Positions 582-21,402 of a DNA stretch of 32,000 bases are shown in pieces. This DNA comes from Blochmannia endosymbiont of Camponotus nipponensis. GTDB lineage: Bacteria > Pseudomonadota > Gammaproteobacteria > Enterobacterales > Enterobacteriaceae. Each line of letters begins with the position of its first letter. Position 1 is the first letter of the stretch. Location: the NCBI RefSeq assembly GCF_009827135.1, contig NZ_CP046534.1, positions 390,001-422,000 on the forward strand. Reading direction: 5' to 3'. The position numbers and the translations under genes are program-made. The notes under the pieces are model-generated. The model was not told the origin of the DNA. It did no database searches and saw nothing but the letters and a program-made list of their open reading frames with translations.

Positions 582-3032
<2,451 letters not shown>

Positions 3033-3038
3033 TTAGTT

Positions 3039-3057
3039 TATATATATATATATATAT
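3039..3057. repeat. (TA)9 dinucleotide microsatellite in the dnaN-gyrB spacer
   Basis: Read directly: ta tatatatata tatatat at 3039-3057, about 40 nt upstream of the gyrB start. Confidence 0.9.
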
Positions 3058-3294
3058 CGAAGATCGTTATCATCGAGCTTTAAATCCTACTAAATTATAT
3101 ACACATGCACACGCATATCATCTTGCTCATGTCATCAGTATTATATTGAAATAATAAACATACATATAATAATTGTAATATGTAATTACATATACATAAC
3201 GATTTATTCTGACTGTTATTATTAACTTCCACCCAAAATCTAACACACGATTTTAATAGTAAAATATATGTTACATTACAATCCGAAAATCTTA

Positions 3295-4398
3295 TTATGT
3301 TCGAATTGGCATGACGATATATGTTGCACCATAACATTTTACTGTACTTTCAATCTGAACACTAGAAATTTCGTTAGTAAAAAAAAAATGTAAGATTTCG
3401 GTATCCATTACATGAAGTATATCAAGTAAATAGTCTACATTGAAAGAGATTTCCATATTTCGCCCTGAATACAAAACATCTAAAATTTCTTCTGATGCTT
3501 CATGTTCAAAATTATGTGCAGTTATTTTTAACTGATTATTAACTAACTTAAATTGAATAACACGAAGCTTTGCATGAGAAACAATAGCTGCTCGTTTTAA
3601 AGCATTTCTTAAAGTATCACATGCTACTTCCAAAACATTTTCAGAACCTTTTAAAAAAACATTACGATAATTTGGAAATACAGCATCAATTAATTTAGAA
3701 GTAAAAATATAATTATCTATCTTTATACGAATACTGTTATGATTTGTTTGAATATCAACTAATTTTTCTCTAACGCTTAACAAACGCAATATTTCAATAA
3801 CCCCTTTACGAGGTATGATGATCGATTGATATGGTAACAATGTATCCACAGTTGTTTCGCAACTTGCTAAACGATGACCATCTGTTGCTACGATACGCAA
3901 CACATGTTCTTTAGTTTCAAAAAATATACCATTTAAATAATAACGTACATCTTGATGCCCCATAGAAAATTGAGTTAATTCAATCATTTTTTTTAAAATA
4001 GTTTGTGATATAACTAATTTTGATTTACTATCCCATTCCTCTAATTTAGGAAAATCTGATGAACAAAACATAGAAAAATGAAATGTACTATATTCAGTAC
4101 AAATGGTTAGTTTATCATCTTTTGATGTTATAGAAATCTTTGATGACTCAGGTAAACTCCTACAAATTTCAAAAAACTTACGTCCTGGTACTGTAATAGA
4201 CCCAACGGAATATTTATTCATCAACATTACTCGAACTGTTATTTCTATTTCTAAATCTGTAGCAGTAATAAACAAATAGTTGTCACTGACTTCTAATAAC
4301 ACGTGGTTTAATATTGGCATCCTTGGCCGCCCACTGATGATACTCACTAATTTTTGCAAAGGTTGATATAATGACTTTCTATCTATTATAAAATTCAT
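3295..4398 (-). CDS. dnaN: DNA polymerase III beta sliding clamp
   Basis: 367-aa ORF with an ATG start. It is colinear with E. coli DnaN (366 aa). Shared motifs: QFSM.HQDVRYYLNG..FET, VATDGHRLA, IIPRKGVIE, FTSKL.D..FP.YR.V, NQLKITA.N.E.E..EEILDV.YSG..MEI.FNV.Y.LD.L, VQIE......YVVMP.R. Confidence 0.97.
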   Translation of the reverse strand: MNFIIDRKSLYQPLQKLVSIISGRPRMPILNHVLLEVSDNYLFITATDLEIEITVRVMLMNKYSVGSITVPGRKFFEICRSLPESSKISITSKDDKLTICTEYSTFHFSMFCSSDFPKLEEWDSKSKLVISQTILKKMIELTQFSMGHQDVRYYLNGIFFETKEHVLRIVATDGHRLASCETTVDTLLPYQSIIIPRKGVIEILRLLSVREKLVDIQTNHNSIRIKIDNYIFTSKLIDAVFPNYRNVFLKGSENVLEVACDTLRNALKRAAIVSHAKLRVIQFKLVNNQLKITAHNFEHEASEEILDVLYSGRNMEISFNVDYLLDILHVMDTEILHFFFTNEISSVQIESTVKCYGATYIVMPIRT

Positions 4399-4624
4399 AG
4401 TTAAACTTTATTTTATATCGTATTTTAATTAATTAATTGATGATGATTTTTTACTAACATTTCAAGCGTATACTATAGTAGAATACTATACGAAATATAA
4501 AATATAAATACATTAATAAACTAATAAAAACTTCACAATACAACCACGTACACACTCATCTTTCATTAATCTGTTCTTCAAAATAGATTAATCATAAAAT
4601 GATAAAACAAACTTTAATTTTTTT

Positions 4625-4653
4625 TTGACTTTATATATACTATACAGTAATAT
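4625..4653 (+). promoter_or_regulatory. candidate sigma70 promoter for the rpmH-rnpA-yidD-yidC(-mnmE) unit
   Basis: TTGACT (4625-4630), a 17-nt spacer, then TAATAT (4648-4653), about 83 nt upstream of the rpmH ATG and preceded by a T9 run. Sequence match only. -10-like hexamers are common in DNA this AT-rich, so this is weak. Confidence 0.3.
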
Positions 4654-4735
4654 ACATACTGGTTTATACATATTTTAACTAAATAAAAAATTGAAAATTA
4701 CTTTTGTTACTAAGTAAACATACAAAAATTTAAAT

Positions 4736-4876
4736 ATGAAACGCACCTTTCAGCCTTCCGTATTAAAACGTAATAGAACACACGGATTTAGAGCAAGAAT
4801 GTCAAGTAGACAAGGGCGTCAAATATTATCAAGACGCAGAGCTAAGAGACGTGTGCGATTGGTTGTATCTTTTTAA
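4736..4876 (+). CDS. rpmH: 50S ribosomal protein L34
   Basis: Too short for the ORF track. ATG at 4736, TAA at 4874-4876. Translation [46 protein letters not shown] (46 aa) is the typical L34 sequence. It lies directly upstream of rnpA as in most bacteria. Confidence 0.95.
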
Positions 4877-4906: not shown

Positions 4907-5254
4907 ATGAATAAAAAATGTTTACCTAAACAGGCACGATTGTTAAATTTAAATGAGTTTGTTTTTGTTTTTCAAAAACCAGAACGTATTAAAACAACCA
5001 AAATAACTTTATTAAGTAGACCTAATCACTTAGGATATCCTCGCATTGGATTAGCTATCTCGAAAAAATATATTAAATACGCTCATGAACGCAATAAAAT
5101 AAAAAGACATATGCGCGAAACTTTTCGCGCATATCAACATAACTTATCGGCAAAAGACTTTGTGCTAACTATTCGCTCAAAAGATATTATTTATTTGACA
5201 AACAATGCACTGATAAAAGAACTTGAAAAATTATGGTATCACCATTTGCGTTAA
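4907..5254 (+). CDS. rnpA: RNase P protein component
   Basis: 115-aa ORF. Matches E. coli RnpA (..RLL....F..VFQ.P.R......T.L.R.N.LG.PRIGL...KK.....HERN.IKR..RE.FR..QH.L...DFV.......L.N.AL...LEKLW..H). Canonical position after rpmH. Confidence 0.95.
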   Translation: MNKKCLPKQARLLNLNEFVFVFQKPERIKTTKITLLSRPNHLGYPRIGLAISKKYIKYAHERNKIKRHMRETFRAYQHNLSAKDFVLTIRSKDIIYLTNNALIKELEKLWYHHLR

Positions 5255-5496
5255 TAGAAAAAAGCATAATATGGTTAATATATGGATACCAAATCAGTAT
5301 CAGCCCTATATTAGGTCATCATTGCCGTTTTAAAATAACATGTTCTCAATATGGGATCGAGTCAATACATAAATTCGGAATGTTACGAGGTATTTGTATA
5401 ACATGCATGCGCATATTACAGTGTCATCCTTTAACTGTCAACAACAATAAAAAATTTAAATATTCTTCATACTCACGTATTCAGGGCATAATAAAT
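5233..5496 (+). CDS. yidD: membrane protein insertion efficiency factor YidD homolog. It has no stop codon of its own and is in frame with yidC
   Basis: The first 88 codons of ORF 5233..7152 read MVSPFALIEKSIIWLIYGYQISISPILGHHCRFKITCSQYGIESIHKFGMLRGICITCMRILQCHPL... This matches E. coli YidD (..[53 protein letters not shown]..). The ATG at 5233 overlaps the rnpA 3' end by 22 nt, and E. coli has a comparable rnpA/yidD overlap. I checked codons 5401-5499 by hand and found no stop before the yidC ATG. Confidence 0.8.
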
Positions 5497-7152
5497 ATGG
5501 ATTTACAACGTAATTTCTTTGTGACAATTTTTTTAATTGTGTCGTTTTTACTATGGCAAACATGGCAAACAGAATATCATCAAAGAATGAATGTTAAAAA
5601 CATAAATATAGATGTAAACACATGCCCATTGATTCAGTCTAAAAATAATGATGAAATAAAATATATTAACAATGCCAGTCATGTGATTACAATAAAAACA
5701 GATGTACTTTTACTCAAAATAAATACTTATGGAGGAGATATTGAAGAAGCATATCTACTGAATTATCTGAAAAATTTAAACTCTAAAGAACCTTTTCACT
5801 TACTAAGTACTTCGCAAGAATTTATATACCAAACGAACAGTGGACTAATAATAGAAAATATACCAAAAGATAAATCACTTAATAATAAAAAACTATTATA
5901 TACCACTAAAACCAATCAAAATATATACACACTACCAGAAAATGAAAATAAATTACAATTAAATTTAATACATCACGCCTCCAATGGAATTATATATACT
6001 AAGAATTATATTTTTAGTAGAAATAACTATTCCATATATGTATATTATACAATCAATAATATAAGTACTCACCCATTAAAAATTAAATTATTTGGTAATT
6101 TAGTGCAATCTATACACTATCCTAAATCACATGATAATAGTAACAACGAAGATAATTTCCCTTTATACTCTTATAGAGGATCAGCGTATTCTACGGATAA
6201 AAAAAAATATCAAAAATATAGCTTCAAAGATATAAAAAATATAAACTTAAATATTAATACCTCTAAAGGTTGGATAGCAATGTCACAAAAATACTTTGCG
6301 ACAGCTTGGATCCCCCTCACTCAAGGAAACATTACATTTTATACTACTCATCATGACAACAATAGTGTTTCTATAGGTTTTCAATCCGATTCATTATATA
6401 TTCCTACAGGAAAAAAAGGTGAACTAACATCTATATTATGGATAGGGCCAAAAATTCAAGAAAAAATGCGAGCAACAGCTCCAAATTTAGATTTAATCAT
6501 TGACTATGGATGGTTGTGGTTCATTGCCCAACCATTATTTAAATTACTAAGTTTTATTTATAACTACATAGGAAATTGGGGTATATCTATTATCATAATA
6601 ACATTAATTATACGTTTAATTATGTATCCCTTAACTAAAGCACAATATACTTCTATGGCAAAAATACGCATGTTACAACCTAAATTATCTTCAATACAAG
6701 AAGAATATAAACATGACAAACATCAATATCATCAAAAAACCATAGAATTATATAAAGAAGAAAAAGTAAACCCATTAGGCGGATGTTTACCTTTATTAAT
6801 TCAAATGCCAATATTCTTAGCCCTATACTACATGTTATCAGGTTCTGTAGAATTGAGGCACGCTAAATTTGCTTTCTGGATTCATGACTTATCCGCTCAA
6901 GACCCTTATTATATATTACCGATCTTGATGGGAATTACTATGTTTTTTATACAAAAAATGTCACCTACTACGATTACTGATACAATACAAAAAAAAATGA
7001 TGACTATCATGTTGATAATTTTTACTATATTCTTTTTATGGTTCCCATCTGGCTTAGTATTATATTATATAGCAAGCAATGTAATTACCATCATTCAACA
7101 ACAAATGATTTATCAAGGATTAGAAAAAAAAGGATTACATAATAAAAAATGA
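5497..7152 (+). CDS. yidC: membrane protein insertase YidC
   Basis: From the ATG at 5497 (MDLQRNFFVTIFLIVSFLLWQTWQ, compare E. coli [23 protein letters not shown]) the product is 551 aa versus 548 in E. coli. The C-terminal core is strongly conserved: DYGWLWFI.QPLFKLL, MYPLTKAQYTSMAK.RMLQPK, EKVNPLGGC.PLLIQMPIFLALYYML, HDLSAQDPYYILPILMG.TMFFIQKMSPTT, FFLWFPSGLVLYYI.SN..TIIQQQ.IY.GLEK.GLH. Confidence 0.96.
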   Translation: MDLQRNFFVTIFLIVSFLLWQTWQTEYHQRMNVKNINIDVNTCPLIQSKNNDEIKYINNASHVITIKTDVLLLKINTYGGDIEEAYLLNYLKNLNSKEPFHLLSTSQEFIYQTNSGLIIENIPKDKSLNNKKLLYTTKTNQNIYTLPENENKLQLNLIHHASNGIIYTKNYIFSRNNYSIYVYYTINNISTHPLKIKLFGNLVQSIHYPKSHDNSNNEDNFPLYSYRGSAYSTDKKKYQKYSFKDIKNINLNINTSKGWIAMSQKYFATAWIPLTQGNITFYTTHHDNNSVSIGFQSDSLYIPTGKKGELTSILWIGPKIQEKMRATAPNLDLIIDYGWLWFIAQPLFKLLSFIYNYIGNWGISIIIITLIIRLIMYPLTKAQYTSMAKIRMLQPKLSSIQEEYKHDKHQYHQKTIELYKEEKVNPLGGCLPLLIQMPIFLALYYMLSGSVELRHAKFAFWIHDLSAQDPYYILPILMGITMFFIQKMSPTTITDTIQKKMMTIMLIIFTIFFLWFPSGLVLYYIASNVITIIQQQMIYQGLEKKGLHNKK

Positions 7153-7231: not shown

Positions 7232-8656
7232 ATGAACTATTTAGTTGATACAATAGTTGCTATTTCTACCCCTCCAGGACGCGGAGGAATTGGGATTATA
7301 CGAATGTCCGGAAAATCAGTTCCTACAATTATTCCTCAATTATTAGGCAAAACACCTGAACCTAGAAAAGCAGAATATTTACCATTTTTAGATACAGATG
7401 GATCCATATTAGAAAAAATAATAGCTTTATTTTTTCCTGAGCCCAATTCTTTTACGGGAGAAAACATATTAGAAATTCACGGACATGGTGGTCAAATAAT
7501 TTTAGATATTTTGTTAGAACGAATTTTAAAAATATCCCCTACTATTCGAATAGCACATCCAGGAGAATTTAGTAAACGAGCATTCTTAAATAACAAAATA
7601 GATCTCATTCAAGCAGAAGCAATCGCCGACATTATTGATGCCACTTCACAACAAGCCGCCAAATCAGCGGCAAACTCTTTAAAAGGAATCTTTTCTCGTA
7701 AAATACGTATAATATCAGAACAACTTAGTACTTTACGCACATACATAGAGTCTTCTATTGATTTTTCAGAAGAAGAAATTAATATCATTTCACATGATGA
7801 AATTAAAAAAAAATTAAAAAGTATTACAAATAATATGAAACAAACATACAAATTAGCCTGTCACGGTGTTTTATTACGTGAAGGGATAAAAATAGTGATT
7901 GCTGGACAACCAAATGCTGGAAAATCTAGTTTATTTAACTCATTAATTGGAATTGACAGAGCAATTGTAAGTACAATATCTGGAACTACTCGAGATACAT
8001 TACACGAATGCATTCAATTAGATGGAGTAGCGTTCCATATTACTGATACCGCTGGGTTACAAAAAAGAAGCGATAATGAAATAGAACAAATTGGCATAAA
8101 ACGCGCATGGAACGAATTAAGTAACGCAGATCATATATTATGGGTAATTGATTCCAATAATAATAATAATATGAATATGGAATATCCAAATATTATCACA
8201 TTACAACATGTAGAAAAAATATTATTATCAAAAAATAAAAAGATCCCCATCACAATTATACATAATAAATCTGATTTAACTAAAAATAAAACCGGAATGA
8301 GCACAATCAACAATTATACAATTATCACACTATCAGCTTTGTTTGACGATGGAATAAATTTTGTAAGAGAACATTTAAGTAAAAATATACAGTCTAAAAT
8401 ACAAAAAAATCATCCTTACAATTCTACTGAAAACCAAGGGAATTTTATCGCACGTAGACGTCATTTAGATGCTCTTGAAAAATCTTCCCAATATCTTCTT
8501 TCCGCTTATAATCAACTATTATCTGGTACGATAATCAATGAACTTTTTGCAGAAGATCTTAAATTAGCACATAATGAACTAAGTAAAATTTTTGGAAAAT
8601 TTACCTCTGAAGACTTATTACAAAAAATATTTTCCACATTTTGTATTGGAAAATAA
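7232..8656 (+). CDS. mnmE: tRNA modification GTPase MnmE (TrmE/ThdF)
   Basis: 474-aa ORF. Motifs: TPPGRGG.GI.R.SG, PNSFTGE..LE..GHGG, RIA.PGEFS.RAFLN.K.DL.QAEAIAD.IDA.S..AA.SA, G-domain GxPNAGKSSL and DTAGL, C-terminal FTS.DLL..IFS.FCIGK. Confidence 0.97.
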   Translation: MNYLVDTIVAISTPPGRGGIGIIRMSGKSVPTIIPQLLGKTPEPRKAEYLPFLDTDGSILEKIIALFFPEPNSFTGENILEIHGHGGQIILDILLERILKISPTIRIAHPGEFSKRAFLNNKIDLIQAEAIADIIDATSQQAAKSAANSLKGIFSRKIRIISEQLSTLRTYIESSIDFSEEEINIISHDEIKKKLKSITNNMKQTYKLACHGVLLREGIKIVIAGQPNAGKSSLFNSLIGIDRAIVSTISGTTRDTLHECIQLDGVAFHITDTAGLQKRSDNEIEQIGIKRAWNELSNADHILWVIDSNNNNNMNMEYPNIITLQHVEKILLSKNKKIPITIIHNKSDLTKNKTGMSTINNYTIITLSALFDDGINFVREHLSKNIQSKIQKNHPYNSTENQGNFIARRRHLDALEKSSQYLLSAYNQLLSGTIINELFAEDLKLAHNELSKIFGKFTSEDLLQKIFSTFCIGK

Positions 8657-8881: not shown

Positions 8882-10270
8882 TCATTTTTTCTTTTTTGAT
8901 CGCTTCCAATTTAAAATAGAAAATTGTCGTATTCTACTAATGATAGTTTCACCAGCTGGCACATCTTTTGTGACTGTAGTTCCAGCTCCAATAATCGCTC
9001 TTTTTCCAATAGTTACTGGAGCTACCAATTGACTATCAGCACCAATAAAAACATTGTCGCCGATGATAGTATGATGCTTCTTAATACCATCATAATTACA
9101 AATAATAGTGCCCGCCCCAATATTGACTTGAGTACCAATATTTGCATCACCTAAATAACTAAGATGTCTAACTTTTGATCGTTCGCCCAATCGAGTATTT
9201 TTTATCTCAACAAAATTTCCCACATGACTTTTTTCTTTTAATTCAGTTCCTGGTCTCAATCGAACAAATGGCCCAACTTTACTTTGAAAACTTATTTTTG
9301 CATTTTCAATGATTGAAAATGGATATATTACTACATCATCTTCAACAACTGTATCTTTTAGTATACAACTTGCTCCTATTTTCACTCTATTTCCCAAAGA
9401 CACATGTCCTTCAATAATAACATTTACATCTATATTCACATCTTTTCCATGCACTAACGTTCCTCTTAAATCAAATCTATTAGGATCAGTTATTATTAAT
9501 CCCGATGATAACAAATATTGTACTTGTCTTTTTTGATACTGTCTGTCTAAATAAACTAAATCTGATTTACTGTTTACCCCCATAATTTCAAATGTGTCAG
9601 TAGAACACATAGTATGTATAACGTAACCTGACTGATAAGCTATATGGACAATATCTGTTAAATAAAATTCATTTGTTAACCTATGAGGCGTTAATGTATT
9701 TAACCAAAACTTTAAATGCCCAGAAACAGCAATAAAAATACCAGTATTAATTTCTTTAATTTGTTTTTGATCATCATTAACAATATCATCATGTTCTAAG
9801 ATACTAACAACACTACCTTCTTGGTTCCGAATTATGCGTCCGTACCCATTTGGATTAGGTAATGTAGCTGTTAAAATACTTATATCACACTGTGATTTAA
9901 TAGAATGTAATCGTTGTAATGTTTGATAAGAAATAAAAGGAACATCACCATATAAAATAAGCACTTCTTCACTATCACTGATAACTGGTAATACTCTCTG
10001 AACAGCATTGCCAGTCCCAATAAGCTCATCTTGTAATATCCAATATACAGGAATTTTAAACTTATCCGTATTAATGTTTTCCATTACTGCTGCCCCTTTA
10101 TAACCATAAACTACATATACGGACTTAACACCAACCTGTATTACAGAATCCATCAGATGTTGCAATATAAACTTACCACCAATTTGGTATAATGCTTTTG
10201 GTGTATCAGACAACATTCTATTGCCTCTACCGGCAGCAAGAATAATTGCACTACAATTAATATGCACCAT
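8882..10270 (-). CDS. glmU: bifunctional GlcNAc-1-phosphate uridyltransferase / GlcN-1-phosphate acetyltransferase
   Basis: 462-aa ORF. Matches E. coli GlmU over its whole length (ILAAG.G.RM.SD.PK, LYGDVP.IS..TLQRL, EINTGI, left-handed beta-helix hexapeptide repeats, NIGAGTI.CNYDG..K..T.IGD.VF.G.D.QLVAPVT.G). Downstream of atpC as in E. coli. Confidence 0.97.
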
Positions 10271-10379: not shown

Positions 10380-10814
10380 TTACATATGATTATTTCTTTT
10401 AGTTAATTCAATCAATCTAAGTTTTGCAATAGCTTTAGATAAATCTGCAGCTATTTTAATATAATCTATATCATCACTATATCGTGTACCTTTAATATAT
10501 TTCTCAGCTTTATGTTTAGCTTCTTTAGCTTTTTTTTCATCTAATTCTTCAGCGCGAATGGCTGTATCCGCTAATATTGTCACTATATTCTTCTGAACCT
10601 CAAGTATACCTCCAGATATATATATATATTCTTCATTACCACACGAATGCACTATACGTAAAACCCCCGGCTTAATCGAAGTAAGTAATGGAGCATGACC
10701 CGGAAAAATACCCATTTCACCTTCAATACCCATTATTTGAATTTTCTGAACTGCACCAGAAAATATCTGCCTTTCAACAGAAACAACGGTTAAATAATAA
10801 TCATGCCTATACAT
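10380..10814 (-). CDS. atpC: F1 ATP synthase epsilon subunit
   Basis: 144 aa. [34 protein letters not shown]......[11 protein letters not shown]...VT.LADTAIR matches E. coli AtpC. Last gene of the atp operon. Confidence 0.96.
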
Positions 10815-10854
10815 ATCCGTACCTTTTCAACATTGCCTGCAATATAACGACAAT

Positions 10855-12273
<1,419 letters not shown>

Positions 12274-13143
12274 TTACATTACAGAAGCTCCTGAAACAAT
12301 TTCTGTAAGTTCTTCTGTAATTTTAGTTTGTCTAACTTTGTTATAAAATAATTTTAAATCATTAATAATAACTTCTCCATTATCTGAAGCAGTTTTCATC
12401 GCCATCATACGAGCAGACTGTTCACTAGCTAAATTTTCTACTACTCCTTGGTACACTTGTGATTCAATATACCGTTGCAACAAACTATTTAATAATGTTT
12501 TAGAATCCGGTTCATATAAATAATCCCAATATCTAGTACGTAACGTAGTTTTATCTACGGAAACGATCGGTAAAATTTGTAAAACTTGAGGAATCTGAGA
12601 TAAAGTATTAACAAATTTATTATATGCTAAATACAATCTATCCACTTGATTATTATCATATAACTGCAACATTATCCTCACTGAACCAATGAGCGATGAC
12701 ATTTCCGGAGCATCTCCAATTCCATAAACACAACTGACTATCTTCATTGGTTTCATGCAATGAAAAAAAGAAGCAGCTTTTGATCCAATCATAGCTAATT
12801 TTATATTTGTTCCTAAATTATTCCATTTATCAAAATCACATAATAATTTTCTGAACAAATTAATATTTAACCCTCCTGTTAATCCTCTATCCGTTGATAT
12901 TATCCAATAACCAACAGATTGAATTTTTCGTCGTTCTAAAAAATAAGAATGTTTATATTCCAATGTTCCTAAAGAAATATGATTAATAACTTTACGAATA
13001 GTTTCTGAATACGGTTTACTGACTAACATACGCTTCTGCGTTTTATAAATCTTAGAAGCAGAAATCATTTCCATAGCCTTAGCAATTTTTTGTATATTGC
13101 GTATACTATCTATTTTTCCACGTATTTCTTGTGAACCAGACAT
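12274..13143 (-). CDS. atpG: F1 ATP synthase gamma subunit
   Basis: 289 aa. The N-terminal EIR.KI.S..N.QKI.KAMEM..ASK and C-terminal RQ..IT.EL.EIV.GA..V are typical AtpG. Correct operon position. Confidence 0.96.
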   Translation of the reverse strand: MSGSQEIRGKIDSIRNIQKIAKAMEMISASKIYKTQKRMLVSKPYSETIRKVINHISLGTLEYKHSYFLERRKIQSVGYWIISTDRGLTGGLNINLFRKLLCDFDKWNNLGTNIKLAMIGSKAASFFHCMKPMKIVSCVYGIGDAPEMSSLIGSVRIMLQLYDNNQVDRLYLAYNKFVNTLSQIPQVLQILPIVSVDKTTLRTRYWDYLYEPDSKTLLNSLLQRYIESQVYQGVVENLASEQSARMMAMKTASDNGEVIINDLKLFYNKVRQTKITEELTEIVSGASVM

Positions 13144-13171
13144 ATTTTAAATCCCATAATAACAATGAAAC

Positions 13172-14713
13172 CTACCAAGATTGGTTTAATTTAAAATTTT
13201 CAATAATACTTTTAAATTTATTTTCAATATTAATATCATATACACAACCATGATCAATACTTTTAATTAGTTCCTTTTCTGTATAAATCATATATAATAC
13301 TAATGCGGATTCGAAGTGGCTTATCTTTGCAATCTCAATATCTTCTAAATAACCATATACTGCTGCAAACAGAACGATAGACTGACTTGCAATGGACATA
13401 GGCTCATATTGTTTCTGCTTTAGTAACTCGGTCACCTTTTGACCATGTTTCAATTGTTTTTGTGTAATCTCATCTAATTCTGAAGCAAATTGAGAAAAAG
13501 CAGCTAATTCACGATATTGAGCTAAAGCAGTGCGAATTCCACCAGACAACACCTTCATAATATTAGTTTGAGCAGCTCCTCCAACTCTTGATACTGAAAT
13601 TCCTGGATTTACCGCAGGACGAATTCCTGAATTAAATAAATGAGATTCTAAAAAAATCTGACCATCAGTAATAGAAATAACATTAGTTGGAATAAATGAA
13701 GAAACATCCCCTGCTTGAGTTTCAATAATAGGTATCGCAGTCAAAGAACCGGTTTTTCCCATTACTTTCCCACAAGTACGTCTCTCAACATAATCAGAAC
13801 TAACTTTAGAAGATCTTTCTAATAAACGAGAATGTAAATAAAATATATCTCCTGGATATGCTTCTCGTCCAGGAGGACGTCGTAATAATAAAGAAATTTG
13901 ACGATAAGCTATAGCTTGTTTAGAAAGATCATCATACACAATTAAAGCATCTTCTCCAAGATCTCTAAAATATTCACCCATAGCACATCCAGCATAAGGC
14001 GCTAAATACTGCAATACAGCGGATTCAGAAGCAGATGCAAGAACTATAATAGTATTAGATAATGCATTATGTTCTTCTAATTTTTTTACAACATTAGCTA
14101 CAGTTGTTGCTTTTTGACCAATAGCAACATAAATACACTTAACTCCACTATAACGTTGATTAATAATAGTATCAATCGCTAATGCAGATTTTCCAGTTTG
14201 CCTATCTCCTATAATTAGTTCACGTTGACCACGGCCAATAGGTATCATAGAATCAACACATTTATATCCGGTTTGAATCGGTTCATCTATCGATTTCCGA
14301 TCAATTACACTAGGCGCAATAGCCTCCACTGGAAGATAACAAGAACATTGTAGTGCTCCTTTATTATCCACAGGAACACCTAATGTATTCACTACTCTTC
14401 CTAGCAATCCCGTTCCAACAGGAACTTGCAATATATTTCCTGTACATTTTACTACCATTCCCTCGGATAAATGTAAATATGAACCCATAACCACAGCACC
14501 GACAGAATCACGTTCTAAATTTAATGCTATAGCAAATTGATCCGAGGGCAAAGCAATCATTTCACCTTGCATTACATTTGTCAAACCATGTATATGGATC
14601 ACCCCATCGCTTACAGTAGTAATGGTACCTTCGTTGCGAGTCTCACACGTTATATCAAATTGAGCAATACGTCGCTTAATTAAATTGCTAATTTCATTTG
14701 AATTTAATTGCAT
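13172..14713 (-). CDS. atpA: F1 ATP synthase alpha subunit
   Basis: The track ORF 13172..14725 begins at a GTG. The ATG at 14713 gives [19 protein letters not shown], matching the E. coli AtpA N-terminus MQLNSTEISELIKQRIAQF (513 aa in both). Walker [10 protein letters not shown] is present and conservation is high throughout. Confidence 0.97.
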
Positions 14714-14749
14714 AATATTATTCACTTACACCTATTATTTCAACACACA

Positions 14750-15295
14750 TTAAGACTGTAGTATGCGATTTAAGCGCAAAATACGTCCACGCATACTTCC
14801 ATCAATCACAATATCATCAATACGAATCACTATTCCAGCCAGTATATCTTTATTTATTTTAGATACTAAATTCACCTTTTTAGATAAACGCTTGGTCATC
14901 ATAGTAGTAATTTTGTTTAATTGTTTAGAACATAAAGGCCAAGCGGATACAACCTCTATTTCTACGGTACGCATATACATAGTATGTATATGCGTAAATT
15001 CTTTAAAAACAATTGGTAACAACCATAAACGATTATTTTCTGCCATGATATAAATTATATTTTTACTACAAATATCGATTGATTTTTGTTGATAATCTTC
15101 ACAAATAGCAATAAATATATCTGACAATCTTTTTGACTCTAAACATCTGAAAAATAAAGAGTGTACTAAATCATTTTTACTTATCTTAGAAAATAAATTA
15201 AGAACTAACTCCCACTCGCTTATATTTCTTTGTTCTACCGCTATATCAAATATAGCTTGAGCATATATACGAGCAACTACAAATACACTAGACAT
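14750..15295 (-). CDS. atpH: F1 ATP synthase delta subunit
   Basis: 181 aa. VAR.YA.A.FD.AVE at the N-terminus and ..AG..IR..D.VIDGS.RGR..RL...LQS at the C-terminus match E. coli AtpH. Its ATG directly abuts the atpF stop (TAAATG). Confidence 0.93.
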   Translation of the reverse strand: MSSVFVVARIYAQAIFDIAVEQRNISEWELVLNLFSKISKNDLVHSLFFRCLESKRLSDIFIAICEDYQQKSIDICSKNIIYIMAENNRLWLLPIVFKEFTHIHTMYMRTVEIEVVSAWPLCSKQLNKITTMMTKRLSKKVNLVSKINKDILAGIVIRIDDIVIDGSMRGRILRLNRILQS

Positions 15296-15778
15296 TTAGT
15301 CCTCATACGACAACGTATTAATAATATTATCTACGAGATCTATATCAATTGTTTCGTTTATAGAATGCTCTATAATTTTCTCTGCACCCTCAATTACAAG
15401 TTTGCTCATTTGTTTTCTTAAATCATCAGCGACACGTTTTCTTTCATGAACAATCTGTTCTAATGCTTGAGATAAAATTCTATTTTGTTCCTTTTCTGCT
15501 TCATGTTTAGCATCATCAATTATTTTTACTTTATATTGATTAGCTTGTTTTATAATTTCCTGGGCTTTAAGTCTAGCTTGCGTCAAACAAAGTAAAGATT
15601 CAGCGCTAGCACGTTCAGATTCTATTTTAGCACGAGCAGCCGAAGCCAAATCGTCAGAGATCTCTTTCTGACGTTTCTCAATAGTAGACATAAACGGATA
15701 CCATACATATTTCATACAAAACCAAACAAACAAAGCAAACGAAATAGCTTGCCCCAATATCGTTGCATTAAGATTCAC
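15296..15778 (-). CDS. atpF: F0 ATP synthase subunit b
   Basis: 160 aa. MNLNATILGQAISFALFVWFCMKYVW.P....IEKRQKEI.D.LASA matches E. coli AtpF. The start codon read from the sequence is GTG (15778..15776), as in E. coli atpF. AGGA lies about 10 nt upstream. Confidence 0.94.
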   Translation of the reverse strand: MNLNATILGQAISFALFVWFCMKYVWYPFMSTIEKRQKEISDDLASAARAKIESERASAESLLCLTQARLKAQEIIKQANQYKVKIIDDAKHEAEKEQNRILSQALEQIVHERKRVADDLRKQMSKLVIEGAEKIIEHSINETIDIDLVDNIINTLSYED

Positions 15779-15837
15779 AGCAAAAATCCTGATATTTAAT
15801 AATCAATAACTAACACAATGTATCCAATGATTAATCG

Positions 15838-16086
<249 letters not shown>

Positions 16087-16125
16087 CTACCTACAATCCT
16101 CTGTGTTGCAATTACAGTACTTTGA

Positions 16126-16962
<837 letters not shown>

Positions 16963-17521
16963 TCATGTATCGTATAATAACATTAAAACAAATTACACTA
17001 TGCACAAATTTACAGAAACATCCTCTATTCTGAAACAATAAAAAACGATTTAATTAAAGTCTTCATAAAAGAAATATCACATGTTCTTTATGTTAGTTAT
17101 AGCATAACGAACACTGACATATTTAATGTATTCCACATATCATCAATTAAAATCAACTACAAATAACAATCTAAATTAACAAAAGTCACACAATTACCCC
17201 ATATACTTATAAGATACAAATATACACCTAATATACACATTACATTTTAAAAGAATTATTTTTTTTCAACTAGTATTCATTAATAGCACATACACGTACT
17301 GCATATTGATAAATTACAAACTCTTATATAAAATAAAATACAGCTCAACAATAATCTCAATATTTTAAAAATTAAATATATTTAAATCAAATAAAATACA
17401 ACCATATACATATAAACCAATTTAAAACTCATGTCCATTCAATAACATAACAACATACTAACACCCATAGTATAGACAATTCATACTTCATATTAATACA
17501 ATCAACCCATCTGCAATGTAA

Positions 17522-19420
17522 CTAACACATACTATAACTTAATAAACCTTGTTTCTTTAACCAAACTAGTAAATTAGAAATAGCTGCAGGAGTAACACCA
17601 GAAATTCTAGAAGCCTGTCCAATAGAATAAGGTTTACAATTGTTAAGCTTATATATTACTTCTTGAGACAACCCGGAAATAATATTAAAATCTATATCAA
17701 TCGGCAACAATATATTCTCATTACAAATAGATTTCTCTATTTCTTCTTGTTGACGACGAATATACCCTTCATATTTTATTTGAATTTCAATTTGCTCAAA
17801 TACTTGACTATCCAATATAAACGGGCCAAAAGTACCTACTTGAGATAACTTTGTATAATTAATTTCCGGTCTTCTTAATAATTCTTCACCATTTACTTCA
17901 TGTACTAAAGGATTTTTAAGAAAACTGTTCAATTGCGCTATATCTGCACTATCCGGAAAAATATAAGTATTACGTAATCTTTGTCGTTCTTTCTCAATAC
18001 TTTCTCTCTTAAAGCAAAAATTTTTCCATCGCGTCTCATTTATTAAACCCAATTGCCTTGCAATTGAAGTTAAACGTAAATCAGCATTATCCTCGCGTAA
18101 AGACAAACGGTATTCAGCGCGAGATGTAAACATACGGTAAGGTTCTTCAGTACCATGCGTACATAAATCATCCACAAGCACCCCTAAATATGCTTGATCT
18201 CTTCTAGGATACCATCCTGCCTTATTTTTAGAAAATCTAGCCGCATTAATTCCCGCTAACAATCCTTGAGCAGCTGCCTCCTCATAACCAGTAGTACCAT
18301 TAATTTGACCAGAAAAAAACAATCCAGAAACAAATTTACTCTCTAATGTTAATTTTAAGTCACGAGGATCAAAAAAATCATATTCAATAGCATACCCTGG
18401 TCTCATTATATGAACATTTTCTAATCCTCTAATAGATCGGACCATTTTTATTTGCACATAAAACGGCAGACTAGTAGAAATACCATTGAGATAGATCTCA
18501 GGTGTTGTCAAACCTTCAGGTTCTAAAAAAATCTGATGCGCATCACGATCTGAAAAACGTATTATTTTGTCTTCTATTGAAGGACAATAACGAGGTGGAA
18601 CTCCTTTTATTACTCCTAAATATGTAGGACTTTGATGTAAATTTGATCTAACTATATCATGTGTCTTTTCATTCGTATAAGTAATATAGCAAGGCACCTG
18701 TCTTGGATGCTGATTTACAGATCCAACAAAAGAAAACACAGGAACAGGATTATCACTGTATTGAGCAGATAAATGATTAAAGTTTATCCCTGTAGCATGA
18801 ACACGAGGAGAAGTACCTGTTTTTAAACGACTAACTCTTAAAGACAATTCCTGTAATCGTTCCGACAACAGTGTTGACGACACTGCATCTCCAGCACGAC
18901 CTCCACTAAAATTATTCATACCAATATGCATCTTACCATTAAGAAATGTTCCTGTCGTCAACACTACAGACGTAGCATGAAATTTCATTCCTATTTTTGG
19001 AGTAACAACACCAACAATCTCTTTCCCATCAATTATCAAATCTTCTACTGACGCCTGAATGATCAACAAAAACTTTTGATTTTCAAGTACATTACGCACC
19101 ACCTGACGATACAAAATTTTATCCGCCTGTGCACGCGTTGCTCTAACAGCCGCTCCTTTACTACGATTAAGTATTCTAAATTGGATTCCTGCTCGATCTA
19201 TAGCATTCGCCATTACTCCTCCCATCGCATCAACTTCTTTTACTAAATGTCCTTTACCCACTCCACCAACAGCTGGATTGCAAGACATTTGACCAAGAGT
19301 ATCAATATTATGAGTAATTAATAAAGTAGTACACTGCATCCTAGCAGCAGCCATTGCAGCCTCCGTTCCAGCATGGCCTCCTCCAACAACTATAACATCA
19401 AAACGAGTAGGATAGAGCAT
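17522..19420 (-). CDS. mnmG: tRNA uridine 5-carboxymethylaminomethyl modification enzyme MnmG (GidA)
   Basis: 632 aa. [141 protein letters not shown] match E. coli MnmG (629 aa). Confidence 0.98.
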
Positions 19421-20147
<727 letters not shown>

Positions 20148-20187
20148 TTTTTCTTAATATCTTATGTTGGGTAGATATTAAGAAAAA
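20148..20187 (+). terminator. perfect 14-bp stem / 12-nt loop hairpin immediately 3' of tRNA-Ile (candidate processing or termination structure)
   Basis: TTTTTCTTAATATC (20148-20161), loop TTATGTTGGGTA (20162-20173), GATATTAAGAAAAA (20174-20187). The arms are exact reverse complements. There is no U tail after the stem, so this is not a canonical intrinsic terminator. Confidence 0.35.
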
Positions 20188-20508
20188 TCATAATAAGAAT
20201 TTTTAAAGTAATATGAATGAGTTGTAGGTTTGTAGTATCTTTTGTGTTGGTTGTATGAGTTTTAGGTATTATGTTTTAAGTTATATGTGTATTTATGTTT
20301 GGATATGGAAATTTAGGATTTTTTGTTTGTGATTTTTGATTTTTCTGTATTTTATTAGAGTATGTTTAGGGAATTTTGATTTTGTTGATTATTATTGTAA
20401 GTTCATGATGGGTTATGGGAATTTGTGATATATGTATAGTAAATTATTAATAGTTTAAAATTAATGATGTTCGATACATATATGTGTACATATCAAGGTT
20501 ATGGTACT

Positions 20509-21402
20509 ATGCCAGTTCGGGTATTAGACGAATTGCCTGCCGTGAAGCTTTTGCATAATGAAGATGTCTTCATTATGCAAAAGTCGCAGGATGCTTTTAA
20601 AGAACTCCGTTCTTTAAAAGTGTTGATTCTTAATTTAATGCCAAAAAAAATTGAGACAGAAAATCAATTTTTGCGTTTATTATCAAATTCTCCTTTACAC
20701 ATCGATATTCAATTATTACGTATAGATGATCGTGTTCCTAAAAATACTCCTGTTGAACATTTAAATAGTTTTTATTGTAATTTTGTAGATATTCAATATC
20801 AGAAATTTGATGGTTTGATTGTCACAGGAGCTCCTTTAGGATTAATTGATTTTTCAGATATAACTTTTTGGCCTCAAATTGAGCAGTTATTTTTATGGGC
20901 AAAAGAGCATGTCACTTCAATATTGTTTTTTTGCTGGGCAGTACAGGCGGCATTAAAAGTATTATATAACGTTCCTAAATTTATTCGTAAGAACAAATTG
21001 GTGGGAGTTTATCAACATAATATTATTAATTCTCGTATACTTTTAACAAAAGGATTTGATGAAATATTTTCGGTACCCCATTCTCGTTATTCAGATTTTC
21101 CTAAAGATTTAATTTATCAGAATACAGATTTAAAAATTTTAGCAGAATCTGATGAGGCAGGTGTATATTTACTTATTAGTCGAGATAAACGTTTAATATT
21201 TGTAACAGGGCATCCGGAATATGATGCTTTAACGTTGTCTCGAGAGTATCATAGAGATCTAGGATTGGGATTGAGTCCAACGTTGCCGGATCATTATTTT
21301 CCTCAAGATAATCCTGATTTAATCCCTAAGATAATTTGGAGAAGTCATGCGTATTTATTGTTTTCCAATTGGCTAAATTATTATGTACATCAAGTTCCAT
21401 AA
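20509..21402 (+). CDS. metA: homoserine O-succinyltransferase
   Basis: The track ORF starts at 20464. The ATG at 20509 gives [21 protein letters not shown], matching the E. coli MetA N-terminus [21 protein letters not shown]. Further matches: [44 protein letters not shown]...[47 protein letters not shown]. Confidence 0.95.

Follow-up and report, generated by a model that had tools for sequence, protein, structure and literature searches.

Within the window (the whole stretch of DNA analyzed here, 32,000 nucleotides in length with a GC content of 29.9%), rpmH and dnaN point away from each other across an AT-rich spacer, with gyrB following dnaN to the left and with rnpA, yidD-yidC, mnmE, glmU, the atp genes, and mnmG extending to the right toward a tRNA-Ile gene. 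The features of the window are as follows:

582-3020, minus strand: gyrB, an 812-aa ORF (NF011501, 1230.9 bits)
3021-3294: dnaN-gyrB spacer (the recF slot), 274 nt, 23.4% GC; recF absent, without remnant
3295-4398, minus strand: dnaN (DNA polymerase III beta clamp), 367 aa (TIGR00663, positions 1-367 of 367, 321.9 bits)
4399-4735: rpmH-dnaN spacer (the dnaA slot), 337 nt, an AT-rich divergent promoter region; no dnaA remnant
4472-4501, minus strand: candidate dnaN promoter, TTTATA-18 nt-TATAGT (consensus scan; weak, inferred)
4625-4653, plus strand: predicted sigma-70-type rpmH promoter, TTGACT-17 nt-TAATAT (consensus scan and conservation)
4736-4876, plus strand: rpmH (ribosomal protein L34), 46 aa (TIGR01030, 76.2 bits)
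4907-5254, plus strand: rnpA (TIGR00188, 91.1 bits)
5233-7152, plus strand: fused yidD-yidC ORF, 639 aa (YidD match at residues 12-67, YidC at 89-638)
7232-8656, plus strand: mnmE (ORF list and NCBIfam scan)
8882-10270, minus strand: glmU (ORF list and NCBIfam scan)
10380-16938, minus strand: atpCDGAHFEB genes (ORF list and NCBIfam scan)
17522-19420, minus strand: mnmG (gidA), origin-flanking (TIGR00136, 901.9 bits; 70% identical to E. coli MnmG)
19421-20072: mnmG-tRNA-Ile spacer with a GC-skew switch (cumulative G-C minimum at 19607), the presumed DnaA-free origin
20073-20147, plus strand: tRNA-Ile (GAT) (ARAGORN and Rfam RF00005, 68.1 bits)
Right of tRNA-Ile: metA, pgi, rsmD, ftsY, rpoH, metE, and udp (ORF list and family scans)

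DnaN and L34 both match their family models over the full length, so the start codons that delimit the dnaA slot, at 4398 and 4736, are sound. Further along, yidD and yidC constitute a single ORF in the window, and occur as two distinct genes in B. turneri and B. floridanus; their fusion has been reported for most Blochmannia (PMC4389277).

The window derives from a Camponotus-type Blochmannia

Protein identity, a GC content of 30%, and gene order all place the window on a Camponotus-type Blochmannia chromosome. The best named homologues of its DnaN and YidC are those from Blochmannia of Camponotus, at 74-77% and 80-83% identity, respectively, with free-living Enterobacterales at 47-50% and 55-60%. 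Relative to the Blochmannia of Camponotus modoc, DnaN is 77% and YidC 83% identical, with identical synteny. Nine other Blochmannia-type loci, i.e., those from the C. modoc symbiont (L081), B. ocreatus (L082), and B. floridanus (L083), as well as Logan ant-run contigs L084, L085, and L087-L090, present the same arrangement of rpmH, 216-338 nt of spacer, dnaN, 218-310 nt of spacer, and gyrB, with rpmH and dnaN back to back. A profile search of genome contigs with a Blochmannia DnaN alignment returned, among the at least 600 matches listed, only free-living Gammaproteobacteria, which provided dnaA-containing loci for comparison.

dnaA is absent from its canonical slot

The original prediction had described an AT-rich gap of 337 nt between the dnaN start (4398) and the rpmH start (4736), devoid of any ORF or DnaA-like translation, in the position where dnaA ought to lie. 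These particulars are borne out in full; the spacer (4399-4735) measures exactly 337 nt, its GC content is 18.4% compared to the 29.9% of the window, and the longest ORF within it encodes 33 aa. tblastn searches of the 32-kb window with the DnaA proteins of Pectobacterium (L004), Zophobihabitans (L009), and B. turneri (L091), carried out with the low-complexity filter off and a word size of 2, gave best E values of ~1-4 in unrelated genes, and searches restricted to the two spacers (4399-4735 and 3021-3294) yielded nothing meaningful. Similarly, a DnaA profile constructed from 40 homologues and run in hmmsearch (--max) detected nothing at E <= 50 among all six-frame fragments of at least 8 aa from the 32-kb window. 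As a positive control, the same profile scored the intact B. turneri protein at 878 bits, and it also picked up short colinear pseudogene pieces in the contig L086 (E = 8e-6 and 3e-3). Since those pieces were recovered in the same run, the profile search is able to detect remnants of ~30 residues.

The canonical order of rpmH divergent from dnaA-dnaN-recF-gyrB, which had been taken as the enterobacterial reference, is indeed present in the free-living Enterobacterales L004 and L009. In B. turneri, an intact 465-aa dnaA (TIGR00362, 526 bits) resides between rpmH and dnaN, downstream of an rpmH-dnaA intergenic region of 683 nt. With the corresponding slot in the window empty, and with no DnaA signal anywhere in its 32 kb, the claim that dnaA is missing from between rpmH and dnaN holds. 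As to the further claim that the gene had been "cleanly excised", the dnaA pseudogene of B. obliquus and the dnaA fragments of L086 point instead to pseudogenization followed by erosion, and the window's spacer is also shorter than the 683 nt of B. turneri.

The contig L086 (Logan SRR32983530) merits separate description. Upstream of its dnaN (at 6001), the canonical slot (5440-5992) is occupied by a dnaA pseudogene undergoing decay, with colinear fragments corresponding to profile positions of about 20-41, 121-166, and 429-456 and a large internal deletion. At ~33% GC, with a different synteny (rph and yicC beside yidC) and a YidC that is 54% identical to that of B. obliquus, L086 is probably another reduced endosymbiont that is losing dnaA independently.

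Were dnaA to have moved rather than been lost, an intact copy would lie elsewhere on the chromosome, outside of the 32 kb (of 788,522 bp) that the window represents. Such a copy could have gone unseen to the extent that our search for DnaA homologues comprised the best 120 matches to the B. turneri query, below which a diverged Blochmannia DnaA could rank. Among those 120, nonetheless, none lies on a contig of 700-800 kb except that of B. turneri itself; the remainder are DnaA proteins of free-living type (~63-66% identity) and one apparently chimeric entry, P0242 (56%). Four Camponotus Blochmannia genomes are reported to have dnaA missing, not relocated, with gene order strictly conserved among them (PMC4389277), and the skew-defined origin of the window (see below) carries no cluster of DnaA boxes. 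We thus consider relocation to be very improbable. As to P0242, this 673-aa "DnaA" is of free-living enterobacterial type, with its N-terminal 170 residues and short AAA+ segments duplicated internally; it is not a Blochmannia protein, and misassembly or chimerism of the database entry is the most likely explanation.

Collapse or omission of the dnaA region during assembly would also generate the observed junction, and palindromes are known to disturb the assembly of Blochmannia genomes (PMC3017870), albeit with nothing specific to the dnaA slot. Against this, the same junction with intact flanks recurs in 10 independent assemblies, spanning complete NCBI genomes, Logan contigs from different runs, and the window. 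Moreover, the composition and skew of the spacer match those of neighboring spacers, and an assembly artifact can be regarded as extremely improbable. The loss of dnaA in the window is confirmed as real, lineage-wide, and already documented in the literature.

recF is also missing, and was probably lost first

An absence that the original prediction had overlooked is that of recF, with dnaN being followed by a 274-nt spacer (3021-3294) and then directly by gyrB. RecF tblastn against the window gave no match better than E ~2, with no remnant in 3021-3294. recF is absent from all of the related loci, including that of the dnaA-bearing B. turneri. As recF is missing even where dnaA has been retained, its loss predates that of dnaA. 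From this distribution, we infer that recF would have been lost before the sampled Blochmannia lineages split, and that dnaA would have followed later, along the branch that gave rise to the Camponotus symbionts.

The spacer as a probable remnant divergent promoter region

Just one block, the reverse complement of TTGACTTTAT, is strongly conserved among the 10 Blochmannia-type spacers, and it corresponds in the window to the -35 hexamer of TTGACT-17-TAATAT on the rpmH strand, ~80 nt upstream of the rpmH start. B. turneri has a comparable element upstream of its own rpmH, which aligns with that of the window. Conservation thereby marks 4625-4653 as a predicted sigma-70 promoter driving rpmH-rnpA-yidDC. 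The dnaN gene would also need a promoter here. In E. coli, the dnaN promoters sit within the dnaA gene; since dnaA is gone, the spacer must by implication hold the dnaN promoter as well. A candidate at 4501-4472 shows partial conservation, limited to the closest relatives, and promoter-like matches in the AT-rich DNA of the spacer were no more frequent in our consensus scan than in shuffled sequences.

Comparison of the spacer with a dnaA-retaining relative had been proposed as a means of finding pseudogene remnants. When the spacer was aligned at the nucleotide level with the B. turneri region between rpmH and dnaA, the two sequences matched in the rpmH promoter block alone and were otherwise too diverged for the boundaries of the deletion to be placed. 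With a GC skew of -0.32, the spacer resembles other left-replichore spacers in both composition and skew.

Persistence of the spacer at 216-338 nt in all lineages, instead of its disappearance, might be taken to mean that it encodes a cryptic DnaA substitute, be it a very diverged or miniaturized initiator peptide or a structured RNA. We rejected both possibilities, given that the longest ORF (33 aa) is of low complexity and that an Rfam scan placed no family in the spacer at the gathering threshold. The spacers are also essentially unalignable between lineages outside of the rpmH -35 block, and the window contains other spacers that are comparably long or longer. A substitute of this type therefore has next to no likelihood in our estimation. 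Rather, the spacer is best understood as the leftover of the old rpmH-dnaA intergenic region, i.e., a divergent promoter region, as part of an overall explanation that we hold with high confidence.

A sharp skew switch marks the presumed replication origin beside mnmG

The cumulative G-C minimum of the window falls at 19607, at a distance of 187 nt from the start codon of mnmG. On either side of it, strand composition changes abruptly, from 12 G and 57 C in 19421-19620 to 91 G and 8 C in 19621-20072 (452 nt). The sign of the skew tracks the replichore and not the coding strand, with the plus-strand genes rnpA-mnmE on the left still C-rich and the minus-strand gene rsmD on the right still G-rich. 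This dependence on replichore and not on gene orientation indicates that the origin is fixed and bidirectional and has kept its ancestral position; the switch itself marks the site beside mnmG, ~19.6 kb into the window, from which the chromosome is predicted to replicate in both directions. The switch coincides with a boundary of divergent transcription (mnmG leftwards; tRNA-Ile and metA rightwards), so part of its sharpness may reflect transcription-associated bias and not replication alone.

Neither a DnaA-box cluster nor similarity to oriC was detected at this site. DnaA boxes (TTWTNCACA) occur no more often than by chance, numbering 5 in the 32 kb compared to 6.5 expected, with none in 19421-20463; with one mismatch allowed, there are 15 compared to 13.6 expected, of which only TTATCCCCA at 19501 lies inside the spacer, and no cluster is formed. 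blastn and nhmmer revealed no similarity to E. coli oriC, and the E. coli oriC flankers rsmG, atpI, mioC, and asnC have left no detectable remnants in 16939-17521 or 19421-20463. The atpB-mnmG spacer (16939-17521) spans 583 nt, and metA lies directly past the origin spacer. The position of the origin has been retained, with the DnaA machinery and its cis elements gone. A search of metagenome contigs with MetA for other Blochmannia origins returned only free-living Enterobacterales, at 63-68% identity.

At finer resolution, the switch at 19607 falls where a (CATA)n/(TA)n microsatellite (19550-19597) ends, within a small GC-containing hairpin, ACTGC-CGTTTGA-GCAGT (19602-19618), in AT-rich surroundings. 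It could conceivably mark a discrete cis-acting origin fired by a sequence-specific initiator, either bacterial or from the host, as opposed to one primed non-specifically by transcription or R-loops; we deem this unlikely, though if true, the 19,607 locus would provide concrete bait for finding that factor.

Several other features adjoin this region. The tRNA-Ile(GAT) gene stands alone beside the origin, outside any rRNA operon spacer, and a 16-nt perfect inverted repeat with a 10-nt loop (20147-20188) begins at its final base, likely constituting a terminator or processing hairpin. A perfect 36-nt palindrome (20548-20583; CTTTTGCATAATGAAGA AT TCTTCATTATGCAAAAG) lies within the 5' part of the metA coding sequence, ~0.9 kb away from the switch; it is in frame and is made up of codon pairs that are reverse complements of each other (LLHNEE/FFIMQK). 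Long palindromes in Blochmannia have been reported mostly from intergenic sequence (PMC3017870).

Discussion

Taken as a whole, the window is with high probability that of a Camponotus-type Blochmannia in which dnaA, and recF earlier, have been lost by reductive evolution, leaving behind a divergent-promoter spacer and a DnaA-free origin at mnmG. The absence of dnaA from Blochmannia was reportedly first described with the first genome in 2003. In subsequent work, dnaA was found to be missing in all sequenced Camponotus Blochmannia (four by 2015), intact in B. turneri, and present as a pseudogene in B. obliquus (PMC4389277), and Wu et al. (2006) noted that Blochmannia, Wigglesworthia, and Baumannia are all without dnaA (PMC1472245). 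The suspicion voiced in the original prediction, that loss of dnaA in Blochmannia and Wigglesworthia might already have been reported, was thus well founded (PMC4389277, PMC1472245); the dnaA loss described here is a rediscovery.

With respect to how the present state was reached, first recF and then dnaA would have been lost via reductive genome evolution of an obligate intracellular symbiont of carpenter ants. For dnaA, the most likely route would be inactivation followed by progressive deletion until nothing recognizable was left. The outcome would be the arrangement seen in the window, with rpmH and dnaN facing apart across a 337-nt AT-rich spacer.

Since dnaA has been lost while a fixed origin beside mnmG persists, firing would be independent of DnaA and DnaA boxes. 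The DnaA-independent initiation that the original prediction suggested is thus supported as probable. Previous work likewise found that GC skew places the origin beside mnmG in most Blochmannia and that DnaA-box motifs are uninformative (PMC4389277), with no DnaA-box cluster and with the B. pennsylvanicus origin at gidA (PMC3017870). Initiation might instead proceed through transcription-assisted opening of the AT-rich divergent promoter spacer between mnmG and tRNA-Ile, followed by helicase loading, possibly under the control of the host. This is our best guess for the mnmG/tRNA-Ile spacer, offered with low confidence. It is preferred over recombination-dependent restart since recA has been reported as ancestrally lost in Blochmannia (PMC4389277) and since B. 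floridanus is without priA, as well as recA, topA, dnaT, and fis (PMC2671203). In addition, initiation via priA/recA was previously excluded, with a role for recBCD being speculated (PMC1472245).

One hypothesis for how DnaA-less bacteria start the replication of their chromosomes is that the host controls replication of the symbiont. The window adds one more lineage with the dnaA-less state and provides no new handle on the mechanism; the modest addition made herein is the position, at the nucleotide level, of the skew switch beside mnmG.

Comparison with known systems

Relative to the canonical enterobacterial cluster, the window preserves rpmH divergent from dnaN and gyrB, as well as the position of the origin beside mnmG. 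It differs from that cluster, and from the canonical oriC located between mnmG and mioC, in being without dnaA, recF, rsmG, atpI, mioC, and asnC, as well as without oriC similarity or a DnaA-box cluster.

Other dnaA-less symbionts, namely Wigglesworthia, Baumannia, Carsonella, Sulcia, and Blattabacterium, likewise possess reduced chromosomes that replicate stably (PMC1472245, PMC4389277). These differ in representing independent losses in unrelated lineages, some of which keep recA, and Baumannia lacks the strong GC skew that is so sharply developed in the window.

Within the genus, B. turneri (the Polyrhachis turneri symbiont) shares the surrounding gene order and the absence of recF. It differs in having kept an intact dnaA in the canonical slot, the product of which shares ~65% identity with free-living DnaA, and in an rpmH-dnaA intergenic region of 683 nt compared to 337 nt in total for the window, such that the residual spacer amounts to approximately half of its length.

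Closest of all are the Camponotus Blochmannia (pennsylvanicus, chromaiodes, floridanus, and vafer), which have the same succession of rpmH, dnaN, and gyrB without dnaA or recF, the same flanks (the atp operon, glmU, mnmE, yidC, and rnpA, together with an ibpA-like HSP20 and glyQS), and, in most of these genomes, the same yidD-yidC fusion. Flanking synteny was compared directly with L081 and L083, the former (the C. modoc symbiont) standing in for the pennsylvanicus group. The window nevertheless represents a separate species-level lineage, with a DnaN that is 51-77% identical to those of named genomes and a spacer that is largely unalignable outside of the rpmH promoter. The origins of B. floridanus and B. 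vafer have reportedly shifted ~32 kb from gidA, whereas the switch in the window is at mnmG; in this respect the window matches B. pennsylvanicus, whose skew-defined origin also lies beside mnmG (PMC4389277, PMC3017870).
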